Of a stretch of 31,790 bases of DNA, positions 1,958 to 25,837 are shown piece after piece. The notes under the pieces were generated by a model, which saw nothing but the letters and a program-made list of their open reading frames with translations, was not told where the DNA came from and ran no database searches. A program made the position numbers and the translations under genes. The first letter of the stretch is position 1; every line of letters starts with the position of its first letter. Source of the DNA: a virus (lineage: Duplodnaviria; Heunggongvirae; Uroviricota; Caudoviricetes); the IMG/VR virus record IMGVR_UViG_3300008069_000054, positions 1 through 31,790 of that record. One strand, given 5' to 3'.

Positions 1958-4405
1958 TTAACCGTCATGCATCATGCTGGCACGGGCGCGCGCACGTTTA
2001 TCCCGCTCGTATTTTTCGAGCGCATCCTGTAACTGGCGGTCAAGCTGTGTCCCCGGCGCAGTACCGCCCGTCAGGTTGATGTGATATTCGTTTTTACTCT
2101 GGTCCACATAAGAGCGACCAGCCGGTGCCGTGACCGGCTGGTAAGCCTGATAGCCTGCATAAGAGCTGGTCGCCGGAATATAACCACCTGTGCCATACGT
2201 GGCGGCATGAGTTCTGGCGGCGGTCTGGTCAAGTGCGTCAGACTCTTTGTTGATGACGCCGAGTTTTTCCAGTACCCAGTCAATACCGCTGCGCAGTTTG
2301 TTGAACGCATTAAGCGGCAGCATCAGCGCGTCAGCCAGTGCCTGCCCGAACATGACGCCAGTATCACGGCAACGGTTCAGGGTGTCCTGGGTGGCTTTGA
2401 CCGGGGCAATCAGGTTTTTAAACCACTGCCACGCGGCCTGTAACTTTTCACCCAGCCAGTCAAACACCGGTTTAAGTGGCGTGAACAGTTCCCCCACCGG
2501 CGCAAATGCCGCTTTCAGCCCTTCAATCACACCGCCAAAAAATGCGCTGACAGGCTCCCAGTATTTACGGATAAGTAACGCCCCGGCGACAATGGCGGCC
2601 ACCACGGCCACTACCGGCCAGCTAATCGCGCCGATAGCCGTCATAACGGCACTGCCAACCGTCGTGAAGATTGCCCCCATTGCACTTGCTGCTGCGATAA
2701 TGGCATTGATGCCGGTGATAACCGGCCAGGCTACGAGGCCAATGGCACCGATGACACCAATCAGCGCCAGTGCGCCACCGGCAATGAGACCAATGGTTGA
2801 CGCCAGTGATTTGTTTTTCTGTATCCAGCCGTCGAGTTTTAACACATACTTTGTGGCCGTCTGCGTGAGCTTACGCAGTGCGCCTTCCTGCTGGTCAAAC
2901 AGGTCTGTCCCCACCGCCTCATAAGCGGACTGAAACTCCTTAAAGTCACCGCCGAGGTTGTCCTGCATGATATTTACCAGCTCTGCGGTCTTCCCGTCTG
3001 AGGCTTTAAACGCAGCGGTCAGTTTGTCCAGCTTTCCGGTTGACGCGGCAGTCATCAGCACGGCGGCGGCTGAGCTGGCCTCCTCCCCGAAAATGGTTTT
3101 CATGTATTCAGCCTGCTGGGCAGTACCGAGCCGGTTTTTCTCAAAACTGGCCTGCATTTCTTTCAGAATGGTAAATACTGGTCGGGTGTTTCCCTTACTG
3201 TCTGAGGTTTTCACGCCAAGCTCTTTGAGTGCATCCCATGCTTTTCCCGTCGGTGCCTGCAGGCGACTTAACACGGCACGGCTTCCCGTCCCCGCCATTG
3301 AGCCTGTGATTTTTGCATCATGCAGCGCTCCGACCATTGCGGCGGTTTCTTCAATGCTGACACCGGCATTTTTTGCCACAGGTGCAGCATAGGTCAGCGC
3401 ATCGCTCATACCGTCAAAATCGGCGGCGGTTTTGTTCATCGTCATGGAGAGAACATCCCCAATATGAGCGACCTTATCGTTTGAAAGCTGAAAGGCGGAT
3501 TTCATCCCCATCAGCAGGGCAGCGTTTTCTTCCATCGTGCGGCGGTTCGCCAGCGCCATATTCAGCGTGACCGGCGTTGCCGCCTGAATGGCATCAACAT
3601 CCCCACCCGCTTTCGCGATGATTATCTGTGCACCGGCCGCATCATCCGCCGAGGCGGCGGTGTTGTCGCCGAGCTGGCGCGCCTGTTTGCGGAGCGCGGC
3701 CATTTCGGCGGAGTCTTTTGCCACTCCGAGCACAGCCTGTAATTCTGAGTTTTTCTGCGCAAACTCATAACCGGGCATCAGCAGCTTAACTCCGGCCATC
3801 GTTCCCGCCGCCGCAATCCCCACACCGGCAGCGCCCACTGAGGCCATATTTCCGGCCAGTTCCTTGCCGGCCTGATAACGCTGTTTGACTGCGTTAAGTT
3901 TTGCCTGTTGTGCACTGACACGCGCCAGTGCGTCGCGCTGACGGTTAAGCTGTGCGGTGGTTTCACTGATACGTTTTTTCAGCCCCTGCTCATCATGTGC
4001 AAGATTGCGGGTATTAATTCCCACAACGGCCAGTTCCCGCTGCTGGCGTTTAACGGAATCCGTCAGGCGGTTATATTTCGCCTGTAAGTCCTCCGCCGCA
4101 CGCTTCGCGGATTCCAGCACTTTCGCCTGAGCACGTGTCGGACGTTCGGTGTTTTTAAACTGTGTGGCAAGGGCTTCGGCCTCCTGCCGTGCCTTTTCAA
4201 GTGCATGACCAGTCACGGCGAGCTGTGCACTGGTCTTGCGAAATCCCTCAATACGGGATGCGTGACCGTTCAGCTCGCGCAGTGATTTTTGTGTTTCCCG
4301 GATATCCCCCGACAGCGATTTGCTCGCTGTGCGGATGGATTTAAACGGGCGGGATGCCTGGTCAACAGCCCTGAGCAATACCTGTAATTTTACATTGTTA
4401 CTCAT
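1958..4405 (-). CDS. T: Tail tape measure protein T
   Basis: 815 aa, coiled-coil-rich N-terminal half and Ala/Gly-rich hydrophobic segment typical of tape measure proteins; same length as P2 gpT; located directly downstream of E/E'. Confidence 0.92.
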   Translation of the reverse strand: MSNNVKLQVLLRAVDQASRPFKSIRTASKSLSGDIRETQKSLRELNGHASRIEGFRKTSAQLAVTGHALEKARQEAEALATQFKNTERPTRAQAKVLESAKRAAEDLQAKYNRLTDSVKRQQRELAVVGINTRNLAHDEQGLKKRISETTAQLNRQRDALARVSAQQAKLNAVKQRYQAGKELAGNMASVGAAGVGIAAAGTMAGVKLLMPGYEFAQKNSELQAVLGVAKDSAEMAALRKQARQLGDNTAASADDAAGAQIIIAKAGGDVDAIQAATPVTLNMALANRRTMEENAALLMGMKSAFQLSNDKVAHIGDVLSMTMNKTAADFDGMSDALTYAAPVAKNAGVSIEETAAMVGALHDAKITGSMAGTGSRAVLSRLQAPTGKAWDALKELGVKTSDSKGNTRPVFTILKEMQASFEKNRLGTAQQAEYMKTIFGEEASSAAAVLMTAASTGKLDKLTAAFKASDGKTAELVNIMQDNLGGDFKEFQSAYEAVGTDLFDQQEGALRKLTQTATKYVLKLDGWIQKNKSLASTIGLIAGGALALIGVIGAIGLVAWPVITGINAIIAAASAMGAIFTTVGSAVMTAIGAISWPVVAVVAAIVAGALLIRKYWEPVSAFFGGVIEGLKAAFAPVGELFTPLKPVFDWLGEKLQAAWQWFKNLIAPVKATQDTLNRCRDTGVMFGQALADALMLPLNAFNKLRSGIDWVLEKLGVINKESDALDQTAARTHAATYGTGGYIPATSSYAGYQAYQPVTAPAGRSYVDQSKNEYHINLTGGTAPGTQLDRQLQDALEKYERDKRARARASMMHDG

Positions 4406-4825
4406 TCGTGTTTCCGCTTCGCCGGAGCGCCTTTTCGCGCCATGTGATGAGTTCGGTCAGGCTCATGGGATACAGTTCTGATGGCGGCCAGTGAAATATC
4501 ACTGCCACATCCGCCATCAGGTCATCGACCGAGAGATTTTTCGGAAACGTCACTGCACCGAGTTCGGCGACAAAAAACCGACCACCTTACCGGCCAGCGC
4601 CACAAGGTCAGGCAGTTCCAGTGCGGCGACTTCCTGCTCGGTCAGCATCGGTGCCGTCATGCGCGGCAACACCTTAATCAGTGCATCGACTTCGGAGTTT
4701 GCGACCGCTGCCAGACTGACACCGCGCAGCGTCCCGGCACTGGGTTTCATCAGCGTGACCTGTTCGATAACCTGCTCACCACGTTTGACCGGATTGTCCA
4801 GGGTAATCACATTTTCTTTGTTCAT
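4398..4825 (-). CDS. E': Tail assembly chaperone E+E' (programmed -1 ribosomal frameshift product, 142 aa)
   Basis: Minus-strand heptamer TTTTTTG at about 4571-4577 inside E. The -1 frame continues for 57 codons (VAELGAVTFPKNLSVDDLMADVAVIFHWPPSELYPMSLTELITWREKALRRSGNTNE) and stops at 4398-4400, overlapping the T start codon. 85 + 57 = 142 aa, as in P2 E+E'. Confidence 0.85.
4550..4825 (-). CDS. E: Tail assembly chaperone E
   Basis: 91-aa ORF MNKENVITLDNPVKRGEQVIEQ... in the position of P2 gpE; ends 9 codons after the T6G slippery run. Confidence 0.9.
   Translation of the reverse strand: MNKENVITLDNPVKRGEQVIEQVTLMKPSAGTLRGVSLAAVANSEVDALIKVLPRMTAPMLTEQEVAALELPDLVALAGKVVGFLSPNSVQ
4571..4577 (-). 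other. Slippery heptamer TTTTTTG for the E/E' -1 frameshift
   Basis: Read directly: plus-strand CAAAAAA at 4571-4577 is TTTTTTG on the minus strand, in frame as GGT-TTT-TTG of E. Confidence 0.85.
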
Positions 4826-4881
4826 GGTTTTCTCACTTATGAATCGGGGTTAACCGGTCAGCCAGGCTGACCGGATGAAAA

Positions 4882-5400
4882 TCACAGGCCGATATTGCGG
4901 CGGTGTTGCTCCAGCCGGTCGACGCCGTTCACCTTCTCAATCATGTTGATGGTGTCGATTTCGACCAGCTCCTTACCGTCCATCGTCAGCCGGAAATAGG
5001 TGCAGACCACGGAGATTTTCGACTCGGTGTCTTCTCCCTGTTTACCCTCGCCGGTGTCGATTTCTTTCTGACGTCCACGCATGACCACCTCGACGGCCAC
5101 CGTTTCGCCGGTATCGTCACGCTGGTAAGAGCCTGCAAAACGAATCGGCACAGCATCCACACCGGTTGCGGCGTAAAGCTCCCAGATAACCGAATCCGGG
5201 AAGCCACCCAGCGACCACTCCATTGACAGCGCATCGTCATCAAGGCCGAGGTCTACCGGTGCGCTGCCGTTCATTCCCGCACCGCGATAGTTTTCGAGCT
5301 TACGGGTCAGTTTTGGCAGCGTGACGGACTTTGCAACGCCCTGATAGCTGTAGCCGTTCAGAAAGACGTTCATTAACTTGAGTTTGCGCGGCATTGCCAT
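4882..5400 (-). CDS. FII: Tail tube protein FII
   Basis: 172 aa, same length as P2 gpFII; immediately downstream of FI. Confidence 0.92.
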   Translation of the reverse strand: MAMPRKLKLMNVFLNGYSYQGVAKSVTLPKLTRKLENYRGAGMNGSAPVDLGLDDDALSMEWSLGGFPDSVIWELYAATGVDAVPIRFAGSYQRDDTGETVAVEVVMRGRQKEIDTGEGKQGEDTESKISVVCTYFRLTMDGKELVEIDTINMIEKVNGVDRLEQHRRNIGL

Positions 5401-5412
5401 CGGTCAGGCTCC

Positions 5413-6603
5413 TTAATTGCTGTTAACCGAGGTGACCAGATTTGCCAGGTATTTATCGGTAATACGCTGGCGCAGGGTCAGGTTTTCGAGAGGAGGCACC
5501 GGTGTATAGTCGTAGTCGATATACAGTTTTCCGGCCTTGAGGGTTTCCGCATCATTGGCTTCTTCACTGAACCAGCATGTGCCATCCACGATATAACCGT
5601 TGCTTTTCAGTTCACGGAATTTGGCATTGATGCCGTCAACGATGTCGCGAATCAGCGTTGCGGTGATGGGCTTATCAATAGCCCACATGTGTGCCTCAGC
5701 CATCGTGTCAGCCAGTACCTGCGCGGTGCGTGTGTAGCTTTCAAAGAGGAACAGTGGGTCATCGGAGCAGGTACGGTTACCCCAGAAACGGAAACCGTCG
5801 CGGCGAACCAGCGTTGTGACGCCTGCCTCGTTCAGTAGGTCAGCATCAGTGCCGGACTTCTGCAAATCCCAGAATACAGATGCGCTGATGCCGGTAACAC
5901 CGTTTACCCCGACGTTGGACAGCGTTTTATGCCAGCCCTGCTCCTGGTCGATTTTAGCGCGCAGACCCAGCGCACGGGCGGTGGCATACGCGGTGGCGGT
6001 GGTGCTGGTGACCGTATCCCATGCGAGGAAATCCGGCCAGATGACCATCAGCTCACGCTGGCTGAAATTCTGGCGGTAGGCTTTCACCTCGGAAATGGTT
6101 TTACAGCCCCATGCACTGATATACCCGAATGCATTCAGTTCCTGGCATACCGATGCCAGTGCGACGGCAACCTCTTTGGTGTCCAGCCCCGGCACACCAA
6201 GAATGCGCGGTTTAACGCCGGTAACCGACTCAGCCCCCATCAGGGCTTTCAGTCCGGTGTACTGACCGTTTTCGTCAGTGGTGCCGATGATATTGGAAAC
6301 GGTCTGCGCGAGTTTCGTTTCCTCGTCGTCGCCGGTGCCGTCTTCCACACGCACGACAACGGTGACCGGTTTTGACTGGTCGGCGATGGCCTGCAACGAT
6401 GCCGCTAGCGTGCCTTTTTTACCAGCCTTTGCAATTGCGCTCTGCACATTGGTAATCAGCACCGGTTTATTGAGGGGGAAGGTTTCCGCATCCGCATCGC
6501 TGGCCGTGCAGACCATGCCGACAATGGCAGTGGATACGGTGGAAATGACGCGGGTGCCGTCGTTAATCTCCAGCACCTGCACGCCGTGATGATAGTCACT
6601 CAT
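5413..6603 (-). CDS. FI: Contractile tail sheath protein FI
   Basis: 396 aa, same length as P2 gpFI; position and sheath-like sequence. Confidence 0.93.
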   Translation of the reverse strand: MSDYHHGVQVLEINDGTRVISTVSTAIVGMVCTASDADAETFPLNKPVLITNVQSAIAKAGKKGTLAASLQAIADQSKPVTVVVRVEDGTGDDEETKLAQTVSNIIGTTDENGQYTGLKALMGAESVTGVKPRILGVPGLDTKEVAVALASVCQELNAFGYISAWGCKTISEVKAYRQNFSQRELMVIWPDFLAWDTVTSTTATAYATARALGLRAKIDQEQGWHKTLSNVGVNGVTGISASVFWDLQKSGTDADLLNEAGVTTLVRRDGFRFWGNRTCSDDPLFLFESYTRTAQVLADTMAEAHMWAIDKPITATLIRDIVDGINAKFRELKSNGYIVDGTCWFSEEANDAETLKAGKLYIDYDYTPVPPLENLTLRQRITDKYLANLVTSVNSN

Positions 6604-7037: not shown

Positions 7038-8147
7038 TTAATCTGAGTCCATTTTCCCAAACTCTGTCAGGCCGAAAACGGAGCTACCAGAAACATGAGC
7101 TTGTAAGCCCGCTTCCTGCATTTCACTCAATTCAACTTCCTGGCTATCCTCTAATCCGATAGAGAACATGGGATAGGCCCAGTTCCAATTCGGATCAGGA
7201 ACCAAACTATTATTCTCTATCTTGAAAAAGCTGACCATGAGATGATGCCTTCCCTGTATCGCCTCTTCATCATTGATGTTGACCAGTACACCAAAGTGCT
7301 TGTAGCCGGCTTGTCCATTCTCGAACATTTTTATCTTGGTGCCGTTTCTGAACATCCAAAAAGAATGATTTCCAGTGGAATCAGCGACCTGCAAGTTATC
7401 TTCGTCAATTTCCCAATTAAGATATTGTTTGATATCAGACTTTGGTTTGAGTTTTTCGTCATTACTAAACCATTGTATTGCCGGAAGTGGAAGGTGAAGA
7501 CCTTCCGGCTGGGGAGGCTGACCTGCAGCAATGGAATGCATGATCTCTGTCATTGATGGAAGCCCCATCAAATGCCATACATCATGGATATCCTTTTTAA
7601 GTATAAGAAGCCCTTTGGATACACCATCCGCGTAAGTTGACTTTAAGCGGACTAGTATGTCCTTGTTACCATCTTTGTCGAGGTCTTCAATGTTTACTGA
7701 AGAAGCCACAACCTCGTCGTCCCCTGCGTCTGGGATGATTGCCCAATACCCAATATCGTAGAATCCAGGTCTGCCAACCACCTTATCTATCAAACTCTGT
7801 CCAGAGGGCTCGAAGACCATCAGGAAACGGCTAAGGGCACCATTTGTGCTCACAGCTCTTCCGTAGACTACAACGGAGTTTGAGGTGCTTAGATCGAGAG
7901 ACTCTCTAGCCACTGAGTCAAACGCCACTGAGTCCAAATGTGTGGCAAGCTGCTGCTGGATGCACTCCCGAGCCATTTCAACTAATTTTTCGCGAACATC
8001 AGCAGATCGTATTGGCTGTGAAGTGAAATGGAAAAGCCCTACTGTAGCCGCTATGCCTATTATTCCCGAAATAACGGTACTTAGAACCTGCTCCTTTACC
8101 ACTTTCACAACTTTCATCAATAGCTTCTTCAACTTCACTTCAGGCAC
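7038..8147 (-). CDS. Hypothetical membrane-anchored protein (hotspot cargo at the P2 Z/fun position); candidate defence gene
   Basis: 369-aa ORF with one predicted N-terminal transmembrane helix (VLSTVISGIIGIAATVGLF) and a large soluble domain containing a DxDxDG-like motif (DLDKDGNKD). The region is visibly AT-rich compared with flanking tail genes, and the gene has its own flanking hairpins. The supplied ORF starts at GTG (8147); a more likely start is the ATG at 8117, preceded by AAGAAG. No family recognised. Confidence 0.7.
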   Translation of the reverse strand: MPEVKLKKLLMKVVKVVKEQVLSTVISGIIGIAATVGLFHFTSQPIRSADVREKLVEMARECIQQQLATHLDSVAFDSVARESLDLSTSNSVVVYGRAVSTNGALSRFLMVFEPSGQSLIDKVVGRPGFYDIGYWAIIPDAGDDEVVASSVNIEDLDKDGNKDILVRLKSTYADGVSKGLLILKKDIHDVWHLMGLPSMTEIMHSIAAGQPPQPEGLHLPLPAIQWFSNDEKLKPKSDIKQYLNWEIDEDNLQVADSTGNHSFWMFRNGTKIKMFENGQAGYKHFGVLVNINDEEAIQGRHHLMVSFFKIENNSLVPDPNWNWAYPMFSIGLEDSQEVELSEMQEAGLQAHVSGSSVFGLTEFGKMDSD

Positions 8148-8445: not shown

Positions 8446-9024
8446 TTATTGCGGCATTTCTGGCCATTCTATATCCGGAGCATTTTCCGGCTGAACGCGA
8501 TTCAGTAGCACACGGTATTTTTTCCAGTGTGTCAGGCTTAACTTTTCTTCCTCGGTAGCCATATCTAAATCGACAGCATCCTGCAGCGTGGCAATAATTT
8601 CACCTGCATATGCAATCTGCTCTTTCTTCTGAGACTCCGCCGCTCTGACAAGCGCATCACGTTCTGCATTCTCATCATTCACCCACGCATTTCCGTCCCA
8701 TTTCTGATAATCCCCCTCCGGGGAAATAGCTGTCACGTCTGGAGGTAATACGCCAAGTTCAGAAATATAAATGGCTGCTCCTGTTTTCGTTTCGTAGACG
8801 GTCTTTCCGCGATGGTCTTCCATCAGTTCCCATTTCATTTCATCTGCATTGAAAACGGCTGCATAACCAGCAGGAATATCAGGTGGTGCAATATCTGTAC
8901 TGTTTGCAGGCAGGCCAGTATACGGCGGAATATATGCATCACTTTCGCCAATAAACTCATTGGTTCCATTAAGTAAATTGAAAACGCGGATAGTTTGTGC
9001 TTCTGCACTCATTCTGAAAGCCAT
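8446..9024 (-). CDS. G: Tail fibre assembly chaperone G
   Basis: 192-aa ORF directly downstream of H with a 1-nt ATGA overlap; tail-fibre-assembly-like sequence; position of P2 gpG. Confidence 0.8.
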
Positions 9025-11642
9025 TATGCAAGCCTCACAATATAGTTAAATGCGATGTTTTTGACGGTGTTTTCTGTATTACCTGTAGCATTAACGGTAA
9101 TAGAGTGCCCGTGTGAGCCAATAGCAACCGTATGTGAATGTGCACCAATACCAACCGTATGATTATGTGCACCAATATCTACCGTGTGGGCATGATTCCC
9201 GGCAGCTCCTGATGTGCCATTAAACGATGGGTTGTCAAAGCCTGTTTTACCGGTTTCACCATTAGTATTGGCATTCCCTCTGTAAATGGTATGTGTATGG
9301 TTACCAGTGGTATTAGTGGTTTTTGTTCCGTAGTTAAACGTACTGACTGTCTTCGTCCCGTAATCAAACGAACTGGTTGTTTTCGTTCCCAAATCCGTAT
9401 TTGACGCACTGGCGCTGTGAGTATGCGATTTAATCCCGTCCTGTTCCTGTGACAATACAGCACGCCCACTGGCGGGTTTGCCCTTGATTGTCCAACCGCG
9501 CATATCCGGAATAACACCAGAAGGATAGGCTATAGCCAGTTTCGGATATGCTGCCTTATCAAACGTCTGCCCCTGCATAATTGCATAGCCTGCAGGTGGT
9601 GTATCTGATGGCCACGGCAGCGGAACACCTGGCGGAAACGCTTCAATATTTGCCGAGCCGTCAAATTTTACGCCGTTAATTGTCCTTGCCGTTTTCAGCT
9701 TTGTTGCTGTAGCCGCATTGCCGGACAGTTCGCCTGAAAGACCACCGCTGAATGTCTGTTTCGCCGCCCATGTCTGAGCTTCGTCAATAATTGGCACACG
9801 TCTTGTCGTGATCGTGCGGCTTCCCGGATTTCCTGAAATACGCACCATAAAAAAGCGGTAGTTCGCTTTACTTACAGTGCTGCGCCATACATGCATTGAG
9901 CGCCCCGTACCGGAATCATCACTCGGACCAACTGCGATGTTTATCAGGTTGCCATCAATGACGCCCCAGTCCATACCGTCGGGAATGTTGGTCATGTTAT
10001 CAAGCCGAACGGTTATCAGACTGCCCGGCACAAAGTCGTAGGTCTGCCAGTCCAGGCTAGTGAGCTTTGCCACAGCACCGCCGATACCCAGATTCAGGGG
10101 AAGTGAATACGAGGTGTAGACTTCCCGCCATTCGCTCCACGAACTGCCGGTATAGACGCGCTCAAACGTGCGACCTTTCGTTGTCGTTCCTGTCCCTGTA
10201 GTGGTATAGCGTTGCAATACAGCAACGTAATCAAAACGTCTGATAACCTCTAACACCCCTAGTAGTGTTGCACCAGATGAATCCAGCAATGGACCATTGG
10301 TTGCTTTACCCGTCACACTGTAAATACCAGGGTCGGTTAGATCATTCAAATCACCGTCATAAAAGCTGCTTGCAGTCTGGCTGCCAATTCTCAGCCACGG
10401 TTCCCACTGTGGGTTTGATGCATCCCAGTTTGCAGCAAGGCAGCGGACATACATGTTCCCACGGCGAGTGGTATAACGCTGGGTATAACTGAATCCACCA
10501 CCTTTCATAACTTCAAGCACTCCCTGCGCGTAACTACCAGCTTCGGGATAGTGCAACGCAAGAGAAGCTAACGTACTGGAACTGTTTCTCCATGTACCCA
10601 GGTTATCCTCCCCGGCCAGAAAATCGAGATCCATACTGTCATCCAGCGTTCTGGCCGTCCCCTGAACGTTACGCCATACGCTCCACGGACCATCTTTGCC
10701 GTTCCATTTAGCCGTCAGGTGGCGAATATAAGTATTTCCATTGCGAACAGTGTAACGCTGTGTTCCGTTAAAATTTCCTGCTGCAAATACTTCCAGGACA
10801 CCAACGGCATTCTCTTCCGGGAAGTGTTTGGCTATCTGTGCATTAGTCGAAGTGCCTTTTGACCATGTACCCAGATAAGCTTTAACGGGACCAAATGTAT
10901 TCAGATCAGCATCAACCGGCATTTCGCCGTTGTTTTTCATAAACGTCAGGCTGGTAACGCCAACATTGTCCAGAAAAGCGCCCTTATCTGGAATATCGCC
11001 ACCGTTCTGGTCTTTCTGCAGACGTTTCTCAGCATTGTCATAGGCTGCTTTTACTGCCTTTGGCGTTGCCGCCAGCTTTTCACTGGTGCTGTTTGTTGCA
11101 CTGCTTAACTGAGTAAAACCTTTTTCTGTCAGTGTGGCGTCAGGATGGCGGCGGGACTGCTCATGCTCTGCGATTTTGTCATCGACGTAATCCTGCGTCG
11201 CCATCACTGTGCTGGCATCAATACTCAGCTCAACGGACGCCACGTTGCTGAGAATAATAACCATGCGGCAGGTCTGCGCACGTCCGGAGCCTTCAGCCAG
11301 TTCTGGCTTATAGCTTTCTGCCATGTTGGATACCGCAATCAGTGTTCCGGCATCGTCATACAGACCCAGCTCACGCATCCAGAAGCCGCCCACTTCGGGC
11401 GGTACAACCAGTTCAGCCACGATATAGTTTTTATTCTTATTATCCACGCTGACTTTATTCAGAGCGTGACGCCAGACCTCATGCACCAGTTTCGTCTGAC
11501 CGGCATCCGGCACCGGCAATTTGCCATTACCGTCACCCACGGCCATTGCAGACAGGTTTACTTTTTTCCCGCCGGGGACAGTGGCGGCTGCCAGCTTTGC
11601 GGCTCCGGCAGTAGTGATAACGGTTTTAAATTTCGTGCTCAT
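9024..11642 (-). CDS. H: Tail fibre protein H (mosaic: P2-like N-terminus, three internal ~85-aa repeats, His-rich GxHxH tip domain)
   Basis: 872 aa; N-terminus [20 protein letters not shown]... is P2 gpH-like. Residues about 250-510 contain three tandem repeats (GVLEV...QRYT.R.GN.Y.R...W). C-terminus carries GNHTHTI / [36 protein letters not shown] repeats. Confidence 0.9.
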
Positions 11643-23632: not shown

Positions 23633-25276
23633 TTAAGATCTACATTCAACTAAAAGGTACACTAATGGACGTTCTGGCGTCCCATTCTTCTTTGCAACAA
23701 AAGCAGATATTTTGTGTTTTGCTATTTTTTGCTTGAGTTTTTTACATAACACTTTGTTTATATAACCAAGTTTCCCGCTCTCATGAACAACAGCTATAGC
23801 ATGTGGATCAACCGGGTTATCCTCTTCAGGAACAAGCTTGACCAAATCACCGACCATTACTTTCGACAAATCAAGCCCTTCCTGATAACGAGTTCCTGCC
23901 ACTTCAAAAAGAAGCTCACCTTCACTATTAAGAATTTCTGGATCTGGCACCAAACAAAAACCATCGCCAGGTGATTTTGCTCCTGTATATCCTAACAGCG
24001 CAAAATCAGAGCCTTCAAATGGATGGGGGAGCAAATGTTGAGCCAGATACTCAGCAAAGTCTTTTCTTTTCCGTGGTGGTAAACGCCGAACAAACGGGTC
24101 AAGCACGTTGTTCGTATGTTCTTCACTTTTCAGACTAAATGCGGGATGTCCTGCAAACCCTTTCTCTTGGGCTTTAGCATAATCTTCTGACTGAAAATGG
24201 TATGTGAAGACGTAGTTATCCCCTTGCTGACGATCAATCTGACCAACAACATAACGAGTACCGCCTGTGGGTGGCTGCCATGTAAGAAGCAACCGAGTAG
24301 GCTCCATTATTCTGTTTATAGTACGCATATTTAGAATCAGTGATAACCTTAGGTATCTACGCCTCAATAAACGAATCGTCCAATCCGCTCGTTCCCTAGT
24401 GAACGGCACATCGGAGCTAATTTCGCAAAGTGAATCTATCTTGTCGACCAGTTCCTGAAAATCAAATTCAAGTCTCCGGGCCAAGTACGCTTTTGACTGC
24501 TCATCAAGAGCCAAATCCTGTATAGAAGAAATATGACCTAATCGTTCATGCGTGTCTGCCCGATTCTTCCGCAAATGATGACAACCACGCTGTATGTATT
24601 CATCTACATTTTGATGGTTCCATCCTCTGATCCTCTCTACATACCTTTCATGCCCCAAACTAGTACCATTATCGAAATATGGTGCGAGATATCCCTTCAC
24701 TTTAGGTGGCGTTATGCCTGGTGCAGATTCAGGTACAAAAACAAAACCCCAATTCTCTTGGTGTCTATCACTATTACCGATGAGCGCATCAAAAAGCAGC
24801 ATATCGTAAAGCCATTGGATCCAGTCTGGAGAGATCAGGCCGCGGATACTAAAAGCCCTACAAATTAAGCGTAGATCAACAAGGTTATGGTGTCTTCCGG
24901 AAGAGTCATCAAAATCCGATATCAACACATGAAAAAAATCAGACGCATGAACAAATAACTGGCTACTTTGATCGTAAAACCACTCAAGCAAAGCTCCATA
25001 TTCGTATTCACCGTTCTCCATCATTCTTCGCGCTGGCAATGCTTTAGGAACAGGAACGCCCATAACATCTCCAACTATATAAGCAACGGTTTCCATCCAG
25101 TACTGATCGGGATAAGCATCTCTTGAGAGTTTAAAAAGATAAGGCCATTCCGGTTTTATCCCCTCAGGAGCATCATTCGGTGACCAAAGCATTTTTTTAT
25201 CCCTCGCTCCTCGAGGAAAAATGCCATGCTCATCATCTTTACGCCAACTAGTTACATCTATTAAATTGATATCCAT
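23633..25276 (-). CDS. HipA-like Ser/Thr protein kinase fused to a C-terminal HIRAN domain (hotspot cargo; candidate defence or abortive-infection effector)
   Basis: 547-aa ORF. The motif LLFDALIGNSDRHQENWGF matches the HipA/CtkA-family catalytic loop (GNxDRHxxN). The C-terminal approximately 90 aa (GTRYQEGLDLSKVMVGDLVKLVPEEDNPVDPHAIAVVHESGKLGYINKV) matches the HIRAN pattern (G.ry...G..v.L..E..NpyDpnAi.V.....lGY). Strongly AT-rich DNA (about one third GC in hand-counted stretches). Replaces tin/old of P2. Confidence 0.7.
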   Translation of the reverse strand: MDINLIDVTSWRKDDEHGIFPRGARDKKMLWSPNDAPEGIKPEWPYLFKLSRDAYPDQYWMETVAYIVGDVMGVPVPKALPARRMMENGEYEYGALLEWFYDQSSQLFVHASDFFHVLISDFDDSSGRHHNLVDLRLICRAFSIRGLISPDWIQWLYDMLLFDALIGNSDRHQENWGFVFVPESAPGITPPKVKGYLAPYFDNGTSLGHERYVERIRGWNHQNVDEYIQRGCHHLRKNRADTHERLGHISSIQDLALDEQSKAYLARRLEFDFQELVDKIDSLCEISSDVPFTRERADWTIRLLRRRYLRLSLILNMRTINRIMEPTRLLLTWQPPTGGTRYVVGQIDRQQGDNYVFTYHFQSEDYAKAQEKGFAGHPAFSLKSEEHTNNVLDPFVRRLPPRKRKDFAEYLAQHLLPHPFEGSDFALLGYTGAKSPGDGFCLVPDPEILNSEGELLFEVAGTRYQEGLDLSKVMVGDLVKLVPEEDNPVDPHAIAVVHESGKLGYINKVLCKKLKQKIAKHKISAFVAKKNGTPERPLVYLLVECRS

Positions 25277-25285
25277 ATCTTACGG

Positions 25286-25837
25286 TTACCCAGCTAATGC
25301 ACGGAAAGCAGCACTAACATAAGCTACCTGAAACTTTGCATCTCGAAGCGCATGATGCGCATCAGTAACATTAATGGAAAAATTTGCCCTTACATCAATA
25401 TTCTTAAGGCTTTTAGCTAGTTCAACGATGGTACGCACGTCTCGATCATTTCGAAAACGCCATGGGATATTTTGCGCATGTTTACGGTAAACCGCTGCCA
25501 ATATAGCGTTATCAAAGCTTGCCCCATTCCCCCAAACTTGTACGTCATCGTTACTACGACTTCGTACAAATAGAGAAAATTCTTGTAAGGCTTCATGTAA
25601 GTCAACAGCAGACGGGTCATTAAAAACCGCCCTTGCAGAATCGCTTTGTATCATCCACCACTGTAAAGTTTTTGGGTCTACAAAACTATTTTCCAATGCA
25701 GATGATAGGGTTATAACTCTATAAAACTCATCCCCACACTTGCCAGTCAGAGGCTCAAAGAACACAGCGCCGATTGAAATCAAAGGAGCATCCATTGACA
25801 CACCTAATGTTTCTATATCGAGCATTAAATTATTCAT
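25286..25837 (-). CDS. DEDDh-type (DnaQ-like) 3'-5' exonuclease
   Basis: 183-aa ORF starting MNNLMLDIETLGV... (Exo I motif D-x-E), with HHALRDA near the C-terminus (Exo III H-x4-D, DEDDh subtype). It lies 9 nt upstream of the kinase-HIRAN gene on the same strand (operon). AT-rich. Confidence 0.7.
   Translation of the reverse strand: MNNLMLDIETLGVSMDAPLISIGAVFFEPLTGKCGDEFYRVITLSSALENSFVDPKTLQWWMIQSDSARAVFNDPSAVDLHEALQEFSLFVRSRSNDDVQVWGNGASFDNAILAAVYRKHAQNIPWRFRNDRDVRTIVELAKSLKNIDVRANFSINVTDAHHALRDAKFQVAYVSAAFRALAG

Follow-up and report, generated by a model that had tools for sequence, protein, structure and literature searches.

A P2-like Escherichia coli prophage fibre gene that very probably joins a P2-type anchor, pyocin-type knobs and a T4 gp37-type needle tip

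Exchange of tail-fibre modules among P2-like, lambdoid, Mu-like and T-even phages has reportedly been recognised since the early 1990s, with the work of Haggård-Ljungquist and colleagues in 1992. R-type pyocin fibres (PA0620; PDB 6CL5, 6CL6 and 6CU2) carry two knobs in tandem, Knob1 and Knob2, followed by a single-iron shaft and a lectin-like foot. T4 bears its tip on the gp34-35-36-37 long fibre; this tip (gp37 D10-D11, PDB 2XGF) consists of a collar, two HxH stems and a C-terminal strand, and a gp38-type chaperone adjoins. The T4 receptor site has been mapped to the distal tip subdomain of the needle, and gp37 also requires the general chaperone gp57A (PMC6957217). A needle with six di-His motifs has been described for the LTF of Bas63 (PMC12609058). 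GpH of Yersinia phage L-413C was already described as a mosaic of four regions, with P2-like sequence in its first 207 aa (work of Garcia et al. 2008, summarised in PMC7460101). For the Tfa chaperones, PMC9608196 presents, with reference to the Mu Tfa structure, a modular model in which a variable N-domain binds the fibre tip and a conserved C-domain drives trimerisation. Chimeras of P2 gpH and S16 gp37 have also been built to retarget P2 (PMC9594776).

We analysed a stretch of viral DNA of 31,790 nt (the window), in which gene H encodes a tail-fibre protein of 872 aa at 9024..11642 on the minus strand, as do all features given below. The open reading frame has an ATG start and no internal stops, and it matches PHROG tail-fibre families at E 1e-250. 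The protein is 100% identical to RefSeq WP_106474431.1, annotated as 'phage tail protein', with V-W-J-I-H-G synteny; H follows gene I in this operon, which is the position of gpH in P2. The P2 synteny around it further takes in integrase, gene A, portal, terminase, capsid, sheath and tube, and the host prophage retains every gene of P2, integrase to ogr. This E. coli prophage is thus complete and P2-like (Peduovirus-type), and H is its tail-fibre gene. At least 12 complete E. coli genomes contain H at 100% nucleotide identity, copies that may represent one clone and thus say little about selection. Over at least 80% of its length, H is found in 118 E. coli genomes.

The N-terminus had been described as P2 gpH-like in the initial annotation, and indeed aa 1-204 share 85% identity with gpH of canonical P2 (NC_001895). 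The baseplate-attachment domain (Phage_tail_fib, Pfam PF12571, E 3e-57) covers aa 1-151 (11190..11642), with 77-93% identity to P2 gpH and about 100% to the H proteins of phage P24A7b and NC_070906. It is followed by a Phage_fiber_2 repeat (PF03406, E 3e-21) at aa 170-210 (11013..11135), a segment that matches the Mu gpS structures 5YVQ and 8JU3. The first mosaic junction coincides with the end of canonical P2 similarity at aa ~202-204. At the DNA level, P2 similarity stops at window position 11037 and comes back only at the 3' end of G. No match past H aa 204 was found by blastp of canonical P2 gpH, nor did a repeat HMM find knob repeats like those of H in that protein, which differs further in its length (669 aa versus 872 aa here) and in being without a T4-like tip. 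Colinearity with P2 gpH had been named beforehand as the finding that would speak against a mosaic gene; the alignment is limited to aa 1-204, and H is thus not colinear with it. The proposed exchange was seen, and its breakpoint was refined to at least three junctions within H, which lie in the DNA at window positions 11037, ~10927-10139 and 9676.

The last of these junctions leads into a T4-like module. A conserved linker at aa 631-666 (9645..9752), characterised by a 26-residue sequence and delimited by DNA and protein similarity, forms the boundary: DNA similarity to the NC_070906 H gene stops at window position 9676 (aa 656), while protein similarity to T4 gp37 starts at aa 636. From there to the end, H aa 636-872 are 58% identical to T4 gp37 785-1026 (blastp E 4e-73), and phmmer matched PDB 2XGF (chain residues 16-242) to aa 653-872 with E 3.4e-76. 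The HxH region, which had merely been called reminiscent of T-even fibre tips, is hence homologous to the gp37 tip. The collar domain (the N part of T4 gp37 D10) spans aa 667-738 (9429..9644) and is 76% identical to T4 gp37 811-881; Pfam Collar PF07484 (E 2.3e-10) is found at aa 672-719, ahead of the needle. The needle, which matches 2XGF, occupies aa 739-855 (9078..9428), with two HxH in the ascending stem, a tip subdomain, and four HxH in the descending stem. Using the subdomain limits of PMC6957217, identity to T4 is 64% and 66% in the stems, 14% in the tip subdomain (aa 785-810, nt 9213-9290) and 100% in the C-terminal strand returning to the collar (aa 856-872, 9027..9077), where 17 of 17 residues equal T4 gp37 1010-1026.

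The six HxH pairs begin at residues 740, 782, 817, 826, 835 and 844, and all 12 histidines within aa 736-850 belong to them. This number was reached in none of 20,000 shuffles, whether the entire protein or just its C-terminal 137 aa was shuffled. Each pair aligns to an HxH of T4, those at 740 and 782 in the ascending and the other four in the descending strand. T4 has seven pairs; H is without one ascending motif, which matches a 5-aa deletion in the descending strand, and the T4-like phage Lv5cm also has a needle with six HxH. TRF detected a 27-nt unit (the 9-aa IGAHxHTV) in 2.5 copies at 9118-9185 and a 30-nt unit in two copies at 9328-9386. The HxH units had been placed at nt ~9027-9390, within about 120 aa. 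Five of the six pairs do fall there, whereas the sixth lies upstream together with the rest of a module that starts at aa ~636 (nt 9737) and measures about 237 aa.

Of the 11 T4 tip residues that are lethal when changed to alanine (PMC6957217), six are the same in H. Among the T4 receptor-contact positions, H has other residues at W936, G938 and G942, and a deletion takes in S947 and Y949 (residues from PMC6957217). As the tip subdomain is only 14% identical, the T4 receptors are not to be assumed for H. The alignment thus points to two tips with a common scaffold but not a common receptor-contact (OmpC/LPS) specificity. A further difference is that H carries its tip on a one-piece P2-type fibre.

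The adjoining gene G (8446..9024) encodes a tail-fibre assembly chaperone of 192 aa (Pfam Caudo_TAP PF02413, E 1.5e-40), and its start overlaps the stop codon of H by 1 nt (TAATG). Over aa 12-192, G is 29% identical to T4 gp38 (E 1e-19). Its N-terminal half matches T4 gp38 (E 5e-13) and not P2 G, while the C-terminal half is 50% identical to P2 G. The only chaperones matched by the N-half are those accompanying gp37-like tips, namely T4 gp38, 613R2 Tfa and P24A7b G. By these similarities, G is classed as an assembly chaperone of the Tfa/T4 gp38 type that was exchanged along with the tip.

Between anchor and tip, H contains tandem repeats. Three times, a GVLEV motif (aa 281, 374, 462) is followed by QRYT (aa 295, 388, 477). 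Self-blastp of H returned the identity HSP alone, and TRF found no period of ~276 nt in the DNA; the knob repeat is visible in the protein only. Internal repeats were scored by segment-wise Smith-Waterman alignment with shuffles. The first and second segments (R1, 236-327; R2, 328-420) are 47% identical over 72 aa (blastp E 2e-22; z = 31, 500 shuffles). Comparison of R1 with R3 (421-512) gave z = 6.7 with the score reached in 0 of 500 shuffles, and that of R2 with R3 gave z = 3.2 with the score reached in 7 of 500. With a repeat-unit HMM, exactly three copies were detected in H and in its homologues: R1 at aa 237-326 (10665..10934; i-E 8.5e-37), R2 at aa 330-419 (10386..10655) and a diverged R3 at aa 422-508 (10119..10379; i-E 2.9e-28). 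Three copies had been correctly proposed earlier, although with a unit of ~85 aa at nt ~10113-10895; the period is ~92 aa and the array extends over nt 10119-10934.

No Pfam model was found for the repeat unit, and its assignment comes from our own profile and fold searches plus the source names on homologues, which NCBI calls 'pyocin knob domain-containing protein'. The repeat-unit profile matched R1/R2 pyocin fibres and Pa193 gp47 (6CL5, E 1.3e-5; 9B45, 2e-5; 6CT8/6CU2, 6.4e-5; 6CL6, 9.6e-5). The match corresponds to the Knob2 region, where the motif G-L-L-V...Q-Y-T...Y-R...W is common to both. Fold search independently found the same pyocin structures, and R1 and R2 were both recognised as pyocin knobs by fold and profile. 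The repeats are accordingly predicted to adopt the tandem antiparallel beta-sheet knob fold of pyocin type. A further beta-rich domain, D4 (aa 513-630, 9753..10106), is knob-like by predicted fold only and is possibly a fourth knob. H would thus have three, possibly four, knobs where the pyocin fibres have two, and what follows them is a putative multi-iron needle of T4 type in place of the pyocin shaft and foot.

The same modules recur in other phages. Peduovirus P24A7b (LR595887 / NC_049390), an isolated and sequenced phage, has gpH and gpG of the same architecture. Its H is 79% identical over the full length with identical anchor and tip, and its G is 97% identical. In the DNA, the anchor (aa 1-239) is 98% identical and the part from aa 502 to the end plus G 92%, the tip being 100% identical as protein. 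The two H proteins differ in the knob region (aa 240-500), which is only 33-63% identical. GpH of L-413C and related Peduovirus H proteins (e.g. NC_070906) are 70-86% identical to H over the P2 anchor, the three knobs and D4, as far as aa ~656-673, but in their C-terminal receptor-binding part they bear no relation to the T4-like tip, and the N-half of their chaperone is of P2 G type. Knob repeats are common to many Peduovirus H proteins of the L-413C type and to some T-even gp37 proteins. Stf of the myovirus vB_EcoM-613R2 is 64% identical to H with a different anchor, the distal fibre of Shigella phage JK23 is 57% identical, and gp37 of the T4-like Lv5cm shows 59% identity in the knobs and 68% in the tip. 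The suggested horizontal exchange of the receptor-binding module is borne out by this occurrence of one cassette on unrelated anchors and in T4-like phages.

H is thus very probably composed of a P2 anchor, tandem pyocin-type knobs and a T4 gp37-type needle tip with its matching chaperone G, all as exchangeable modules. In the proposed build, the P2-type N-terminal domain (aa 1-~205) would plug a trimeric fibre into the P2 baseplate. The shaft (aa ~237-630) would comprise three sequence-related knobs and one knob-like domain as in R-type pyocin fibres, and by analogy these knobs may add secondary carbohydrate contacts. Through the linker, the shaft would pass into the gp37-type module (aa ~636-872) with its collar and six-stranded needle. 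Extrapolating from the T4 alignment, we infer that H trimerises and that its HxH pairs, six in each chain, bind six iron ions along the axis of the trimer, with the small distal tip subdomain presumably making the receptor contact. The gp38-class N-half of the translationally coupled G would bind and fold the tip, and its C-half would serve as a generic Tfa oligomerisation domain as in P2 gpG. Tip and chaperone were probably gained jointly via recombination at conserved linker motifs. The receptor specificity of H probably differs from those of both P2 and T4, and a host range other than that of P2 can reasonably be expected for this prophage.

The distal tip subdomain might, however, not be the leading determinant. 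Since the knobs diverge between a near-identical anchor and a near-identical tip and G in H and P24A7b, the knob block was swapped independently, and the greatest diversity in pyocin fibres is found in Knob2, which has been argued to outweigh the C-terminal domain in the pyocin spectrum (PMC6116203). The knob cassette (aa ~240-500) could accordingly be the main or an equal second host-range determinant, with the needle acting as a more generic secondary binder. Such a division of roles seems rather unlikely to us, as the T4 receptor site lies in the distal subdomain of the homologous needle (PMC6957217) and this subdomain is the part of H most diverged from T4, as expected of a specificity determinant. 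It is far less probable that H is a non-functional relic within a defective prophage, its architecture serving no present purpose. The annotation of NZ_CP089445 (E. coli 5-1) does place a fragment of an IS3 transposase shortly after G, but H and G both remain intact, with coupled translation, the P2 gene set is complete, and the architecture recurs in the isolated phage P24A7b with its identical tip and 97% identical G. A compositional or convergent origin of the HxH run and the repeats is practically untenable: Gly/His/Thr-rich sequence can inflate alignment scores, yet the 58% identity over ~240 aa takes in the non-repetitive collar and the last 17 residues, this alignment and the 2XGF match (E 3e-76) refute such an origin for the HxH run, and for the knobs the profile and fold searches agree independently.

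Returning to the modular fibre, H is an evident yet unexceptional example of swapped tail-fibre modules, and it leaves the picture of tail-fibre evolution unchanged. It is a natural counterpart of the fusions engineered by hand, with natural fusion points at aa ~204-239, ~500 and ~656, and the matching chaperone travels with the tip, which makes it useful as a design template. More speculatively, the two independently exchangeable specificity modules (knobs, aa ~240-500; needle tip, aa ~785-810) could provide bipartite recognition, and in a P2-like phage a Tfa/gp38-class chaperone might by itself, without gp57A, suffice for the folding of a T4-type multi-iron needle; we regard this combination as a tentative idea. 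If it were true, natural P2-like prophages would offer a ready supply of gp37-type tips that need no gp57A, with which P2- or pyocin-based particles could be retargeted. For annotation, the label 'phage tail protein' could become more specific: a P2-type fibre that has pyocin-type knobs and a gp37-type tip.

We also considered whether the tip has an invertible or duplicated alternative of the kind known from Mu and P1, and rejected this, as a tblastn search of the window with H and G revealed no second copy. No NCBIfam family was returned for H, G or the downstream ORF. The GC content drops along the region: it is 0.58 for the baseplate genes, against 0.45 for the needle and 0.46 for G.

The tail-fibre gene H occupies window positions 9024..11642 (-) as a single unbroken ORF of 872 aa, and its place follows the P2 late operon order V-W-J-I-H-G. 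Other P2-type genes in the window encode capsid, terminase, portal, sheath, tube, tape measure, gene D and ogr, and replication gene A and an integrase are likewise present. Gene set and order mark the window as a complete P2-like prophage. At least 12 complete E. coli chromosomes carry H with 100% nucleotide identity; in these, fieF/pfkA adjoin the prophage and the protein is recorded as WP_106474431.1, 'phage tail protein'. Of 5,426 genomes, 118 contain 80% or more of the gene. The baseplate genes have a GC content of 0.58, against 0.45-0.46 in the HxH needle (H aa 739-855) and the chaperone gene G.

The initial annotation regarded H as a mosaic with a P2 gpH-like N-terminus and a single breakpoint. 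The N-terminal part was borne out, as alignment of canonical P2 gpH (669 aa) was confined to H aa 1-204 at 85% identity, and the two proteins were not colinear past aa 204. Pfam identified Phage_tail_fib at aa 1-151 (E 3e-57), a Phage_fiber_2 repeat at aa 170-210 and a Collar domain at aa 672-719. DNA similarity to P2 stopped at window 11037 and returned only in the last ~100 nt of G. H is indeed a mosaic, but 30-aa sliding comparison and blastn gave at least three junctions instead of one: at aa ~204-239, within and just past the Phage_fiber_2 repeat, at aa ~500, and at aa ~656 in a conserved linker (26 residues). Between aa ~205 and ~656-673, H is colinear at 70-86% identity with a different, common Peduovirus H class, including NC_070906, P22H1, P24C9, Yersinia phages vB_YpM_22 and L-413C, and others. 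L-413C GpH has already been described as a four-region mosaic whose first 207 aa are P2-like, according to the account of Garcia et al. 2008 relayed in PMC7460101.

Three tandem repeats of ~85 aa had also been proposed, and they proved real with a period of ~92 aa. GVLEV occurs at aa 281, 374 and 462 and QRYT at aa 295, 388 and 477, while a repeat-unit profile placed the copies at aa 237-326, 330-419 and 422-508. The first two repeats (236-327 and 328-420) are 47% identical (blastp E 2e-22; Smith-Waterman z = 31 against shuffles); the third (421-512) is a diverged copy (z = 6.7 against the first and 3.2 against the second). The repeat exists at the protein level only and was not visible in the DNA by TRF. 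The profile matched fibre structures of the R1 and R2 pyocins and of Pseudomonas phage Pa193 (6CL5, E 1.3e-5; 9B45, 2e-5; 6CT8, 6e-5; 6CL6, 1e-4), falling on the pyocin fibres in the Knob2 region with a common motif pattern. An AlphaFold2 model of aa 226-640 (pLDDT 74) contained four beta-rich domains, the last of which, D4 (aa 513-630), is knob-like by predicted fold only. By profile match and predicted fold, the three repeats are knob domains. The structures 5EFV and 5M9F and T4 gp34 have been named as knob-like relatives of pyocin knobs (PMC6116203). Such knobs are widespread in Peduovirus and some T-even fibres and absent from canonical P2; the same profile found no copy in canonical P2 gpH or T4 gp37. 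Across 1.84 billion cluster representatives, 204 clusters matched at E <= 1e-3 and 96 at E <= 1e-10, mostly proteins of 400-1,500 aa with one to six stretches at varying positions, and this variability fits the expectation for a mobile fibre-shaft module. No Pfam model covers the repeat, and an NCBIfam release 20 scan of H returned no family, although NCBI names many homologues (P0009, P0012, P0014 etc.) 'pyocin knob domain-containing protein'.

The isolated Peduovirus P24A7b agrees with this prophage in the anchor (98% DNA identity) and in the tip together with G (92% DNA identity, tip protein 100%), whereas its knobs are only 33-63% identical to those of H. The knob block (window 10139..10927 against 4716..5510 of the P24A7b locus) is the sole strongly diverged part of H. 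Its position between 98% and 92% DNA flanks suggests that the knob cassette was exchanged by itself. In vB_EcoM-613R2, knobs, D4 and tip stand on an unrelated anchor (64% overall). Three knobs plus D4 also occur in two T4-like phages, Lv5cm (gp37, 59%) and Shigella phage JK23 (57%), and Lv5cm has the short needle as well (68%). Lv5cm gp37 (2689..5475 of its locus) has 928 aa, ~100 aa fewer than T4 gp37, and its aa 105-517 form the Peduovirus-type three-knob and D4 block, 59% identical to H; the repeat HMM found no such block in T4 gp37. Lv5cm thus shares part of its distal half-fibre shaft with P2-like prophages.

A T4-like tip had been placed in the last ~120 aa. The homology to gp37 holds, but the block extends over ~237 aa including the collar: H aa 636-872 matches T4 gp37 785-1026 at 58% identity (E 4e-73) and the crystallised tip 2XGF at E 3.4e-76. 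The HxH units are equally genuine, with six pairs at aa 740, 782, 817, 826, 835 and 844. Every histidine of aa 736-850 sits in such a pair, and none of 20,000 shuffles reached six. TRF independently detected the 9-aa IGAHxHTV unit as a 27-nt repeat at 9118-9185. With subdomain limits from PMC6957217, identity to T4 gp37 was 76% in the collar, 64% in the ascending stem, 14% in the distal tip subdomain (aa 785-810), 66% in the descending stem and 17/17 over the last 17 residues. One ascending HxH of T4 (GGHTHSG) is missing from H, with a matching 5-residue deletion in the descending strand, and H therefore has six HxH layers against seven in T4. The same short form occurs in T4-like Salmonella phage Lv5cm, and a needle with six motifs is documented for Bas63 (PMC12609058). 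Several T4 receptor-binding residues, essential by mutagenesis, are replaced or deleted. The scaffold of the tip is conserved, its contact surface not. The needle alone was found in 343 phage records, comprising Peduoviruses, lambdoid Stf proteins, Felixounaviruses and T-even phages.

The start codon of G (8446..9024) overlaps the stop codon of H by one nucleotide (gcaTAATGgct), and Pfam classes G as a Caudo_TAP protein. Nearly all of G aligns with T4 gp38, at 29% identity (E 1e-19). Taken by themselves, its first 100 aa still match gp38 (E 5e-13) and gave no match to P2 gpG, while the C-terminal half shares 50% identity with P2 gpG. On sequence grounds, the halves fit the modular Tfa model (PMC9608196), which assigns fibre-tip binding to a variable N-domain and trimerisation to a conserved C-domain. 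Tip and chaperone therefore moved as a unit, and G belongs to the exchanged cassette. With this addition, the horizontal exchange of the receptor-binding module suggested by the initial annotation is supported.

By homology, H would form a trimer fastened to the baseplate by its P2-type N-terminus, with the knobs as a beaded shaft that may add sugar contacts, as proposed for pyocin Knob2. The C-terminal chain would run outward along the needle, make the tip and return to the collar, so that six HxH pairs from three chains could give six axial His6 metal sites as in 2XGF. The G N-domain would bind the nascent tip and its C-domain promote trimerisation. Receptor recognition is unlikely to be the same as in P2, because the P2 C-terminal part is unrelated, or as in T4, whose tip subdomain shares only 14% identity. 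In the chief competing reading, specificity depends equally or mainly on the knob cassette, which is swapped independently; diverged knobs between a kept anchor and tip in P24A7b make this reading worth testing.

All the modules come from families already described (P2 gpH anchor, pyocin-type knobs, T4 gp37 tip, Tfa/gp38 chaperone), and both RefSeq and an isolated phage already contain the combination. P2-gp37 chimeras made in the laboratory imitate it (PMC9594776). The main use of the finding is to improve annotation and to offer fibre engineers a natural template.

Elsewhere in the window, a 547-aa ORF (23633..25276, -) lies in an island of low GC (0.39-0.45) flanked by the portal gene and replication gene A. 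This interval is where P2 has its old/tin hotspot. The protein is a HipA-like kinase (HipA_C aa 23-206, Couple_hipA aa 343-437) fused to HIRAN (aa 453-525), and both PADLOC candidate-defence models, PDC-M03A (aa 4-308, E 4e-31) and PDC-M03B (aa 325-525, E 1e-30), fall within it. Directly adjoining in the same island, 25286..25837 (-) encodes a 183-aa Rv2179c-like 3'-5' exoribonuclease (Pfam E 7e-57; weak PADLOC DEDDh match), which may be a partner in a defence system. Between G and the sheath gene, where P2 has Z/fun, lies a 369-aa ORF (7038..8147, -; GC 0.45) that matched phrog_15038 (E 4e-258) and nothing in Pfam, NCBIfam or PADLOC. The annotation of NZ_CP089445 has an IS3 transposase fragment separating this ORF from G.
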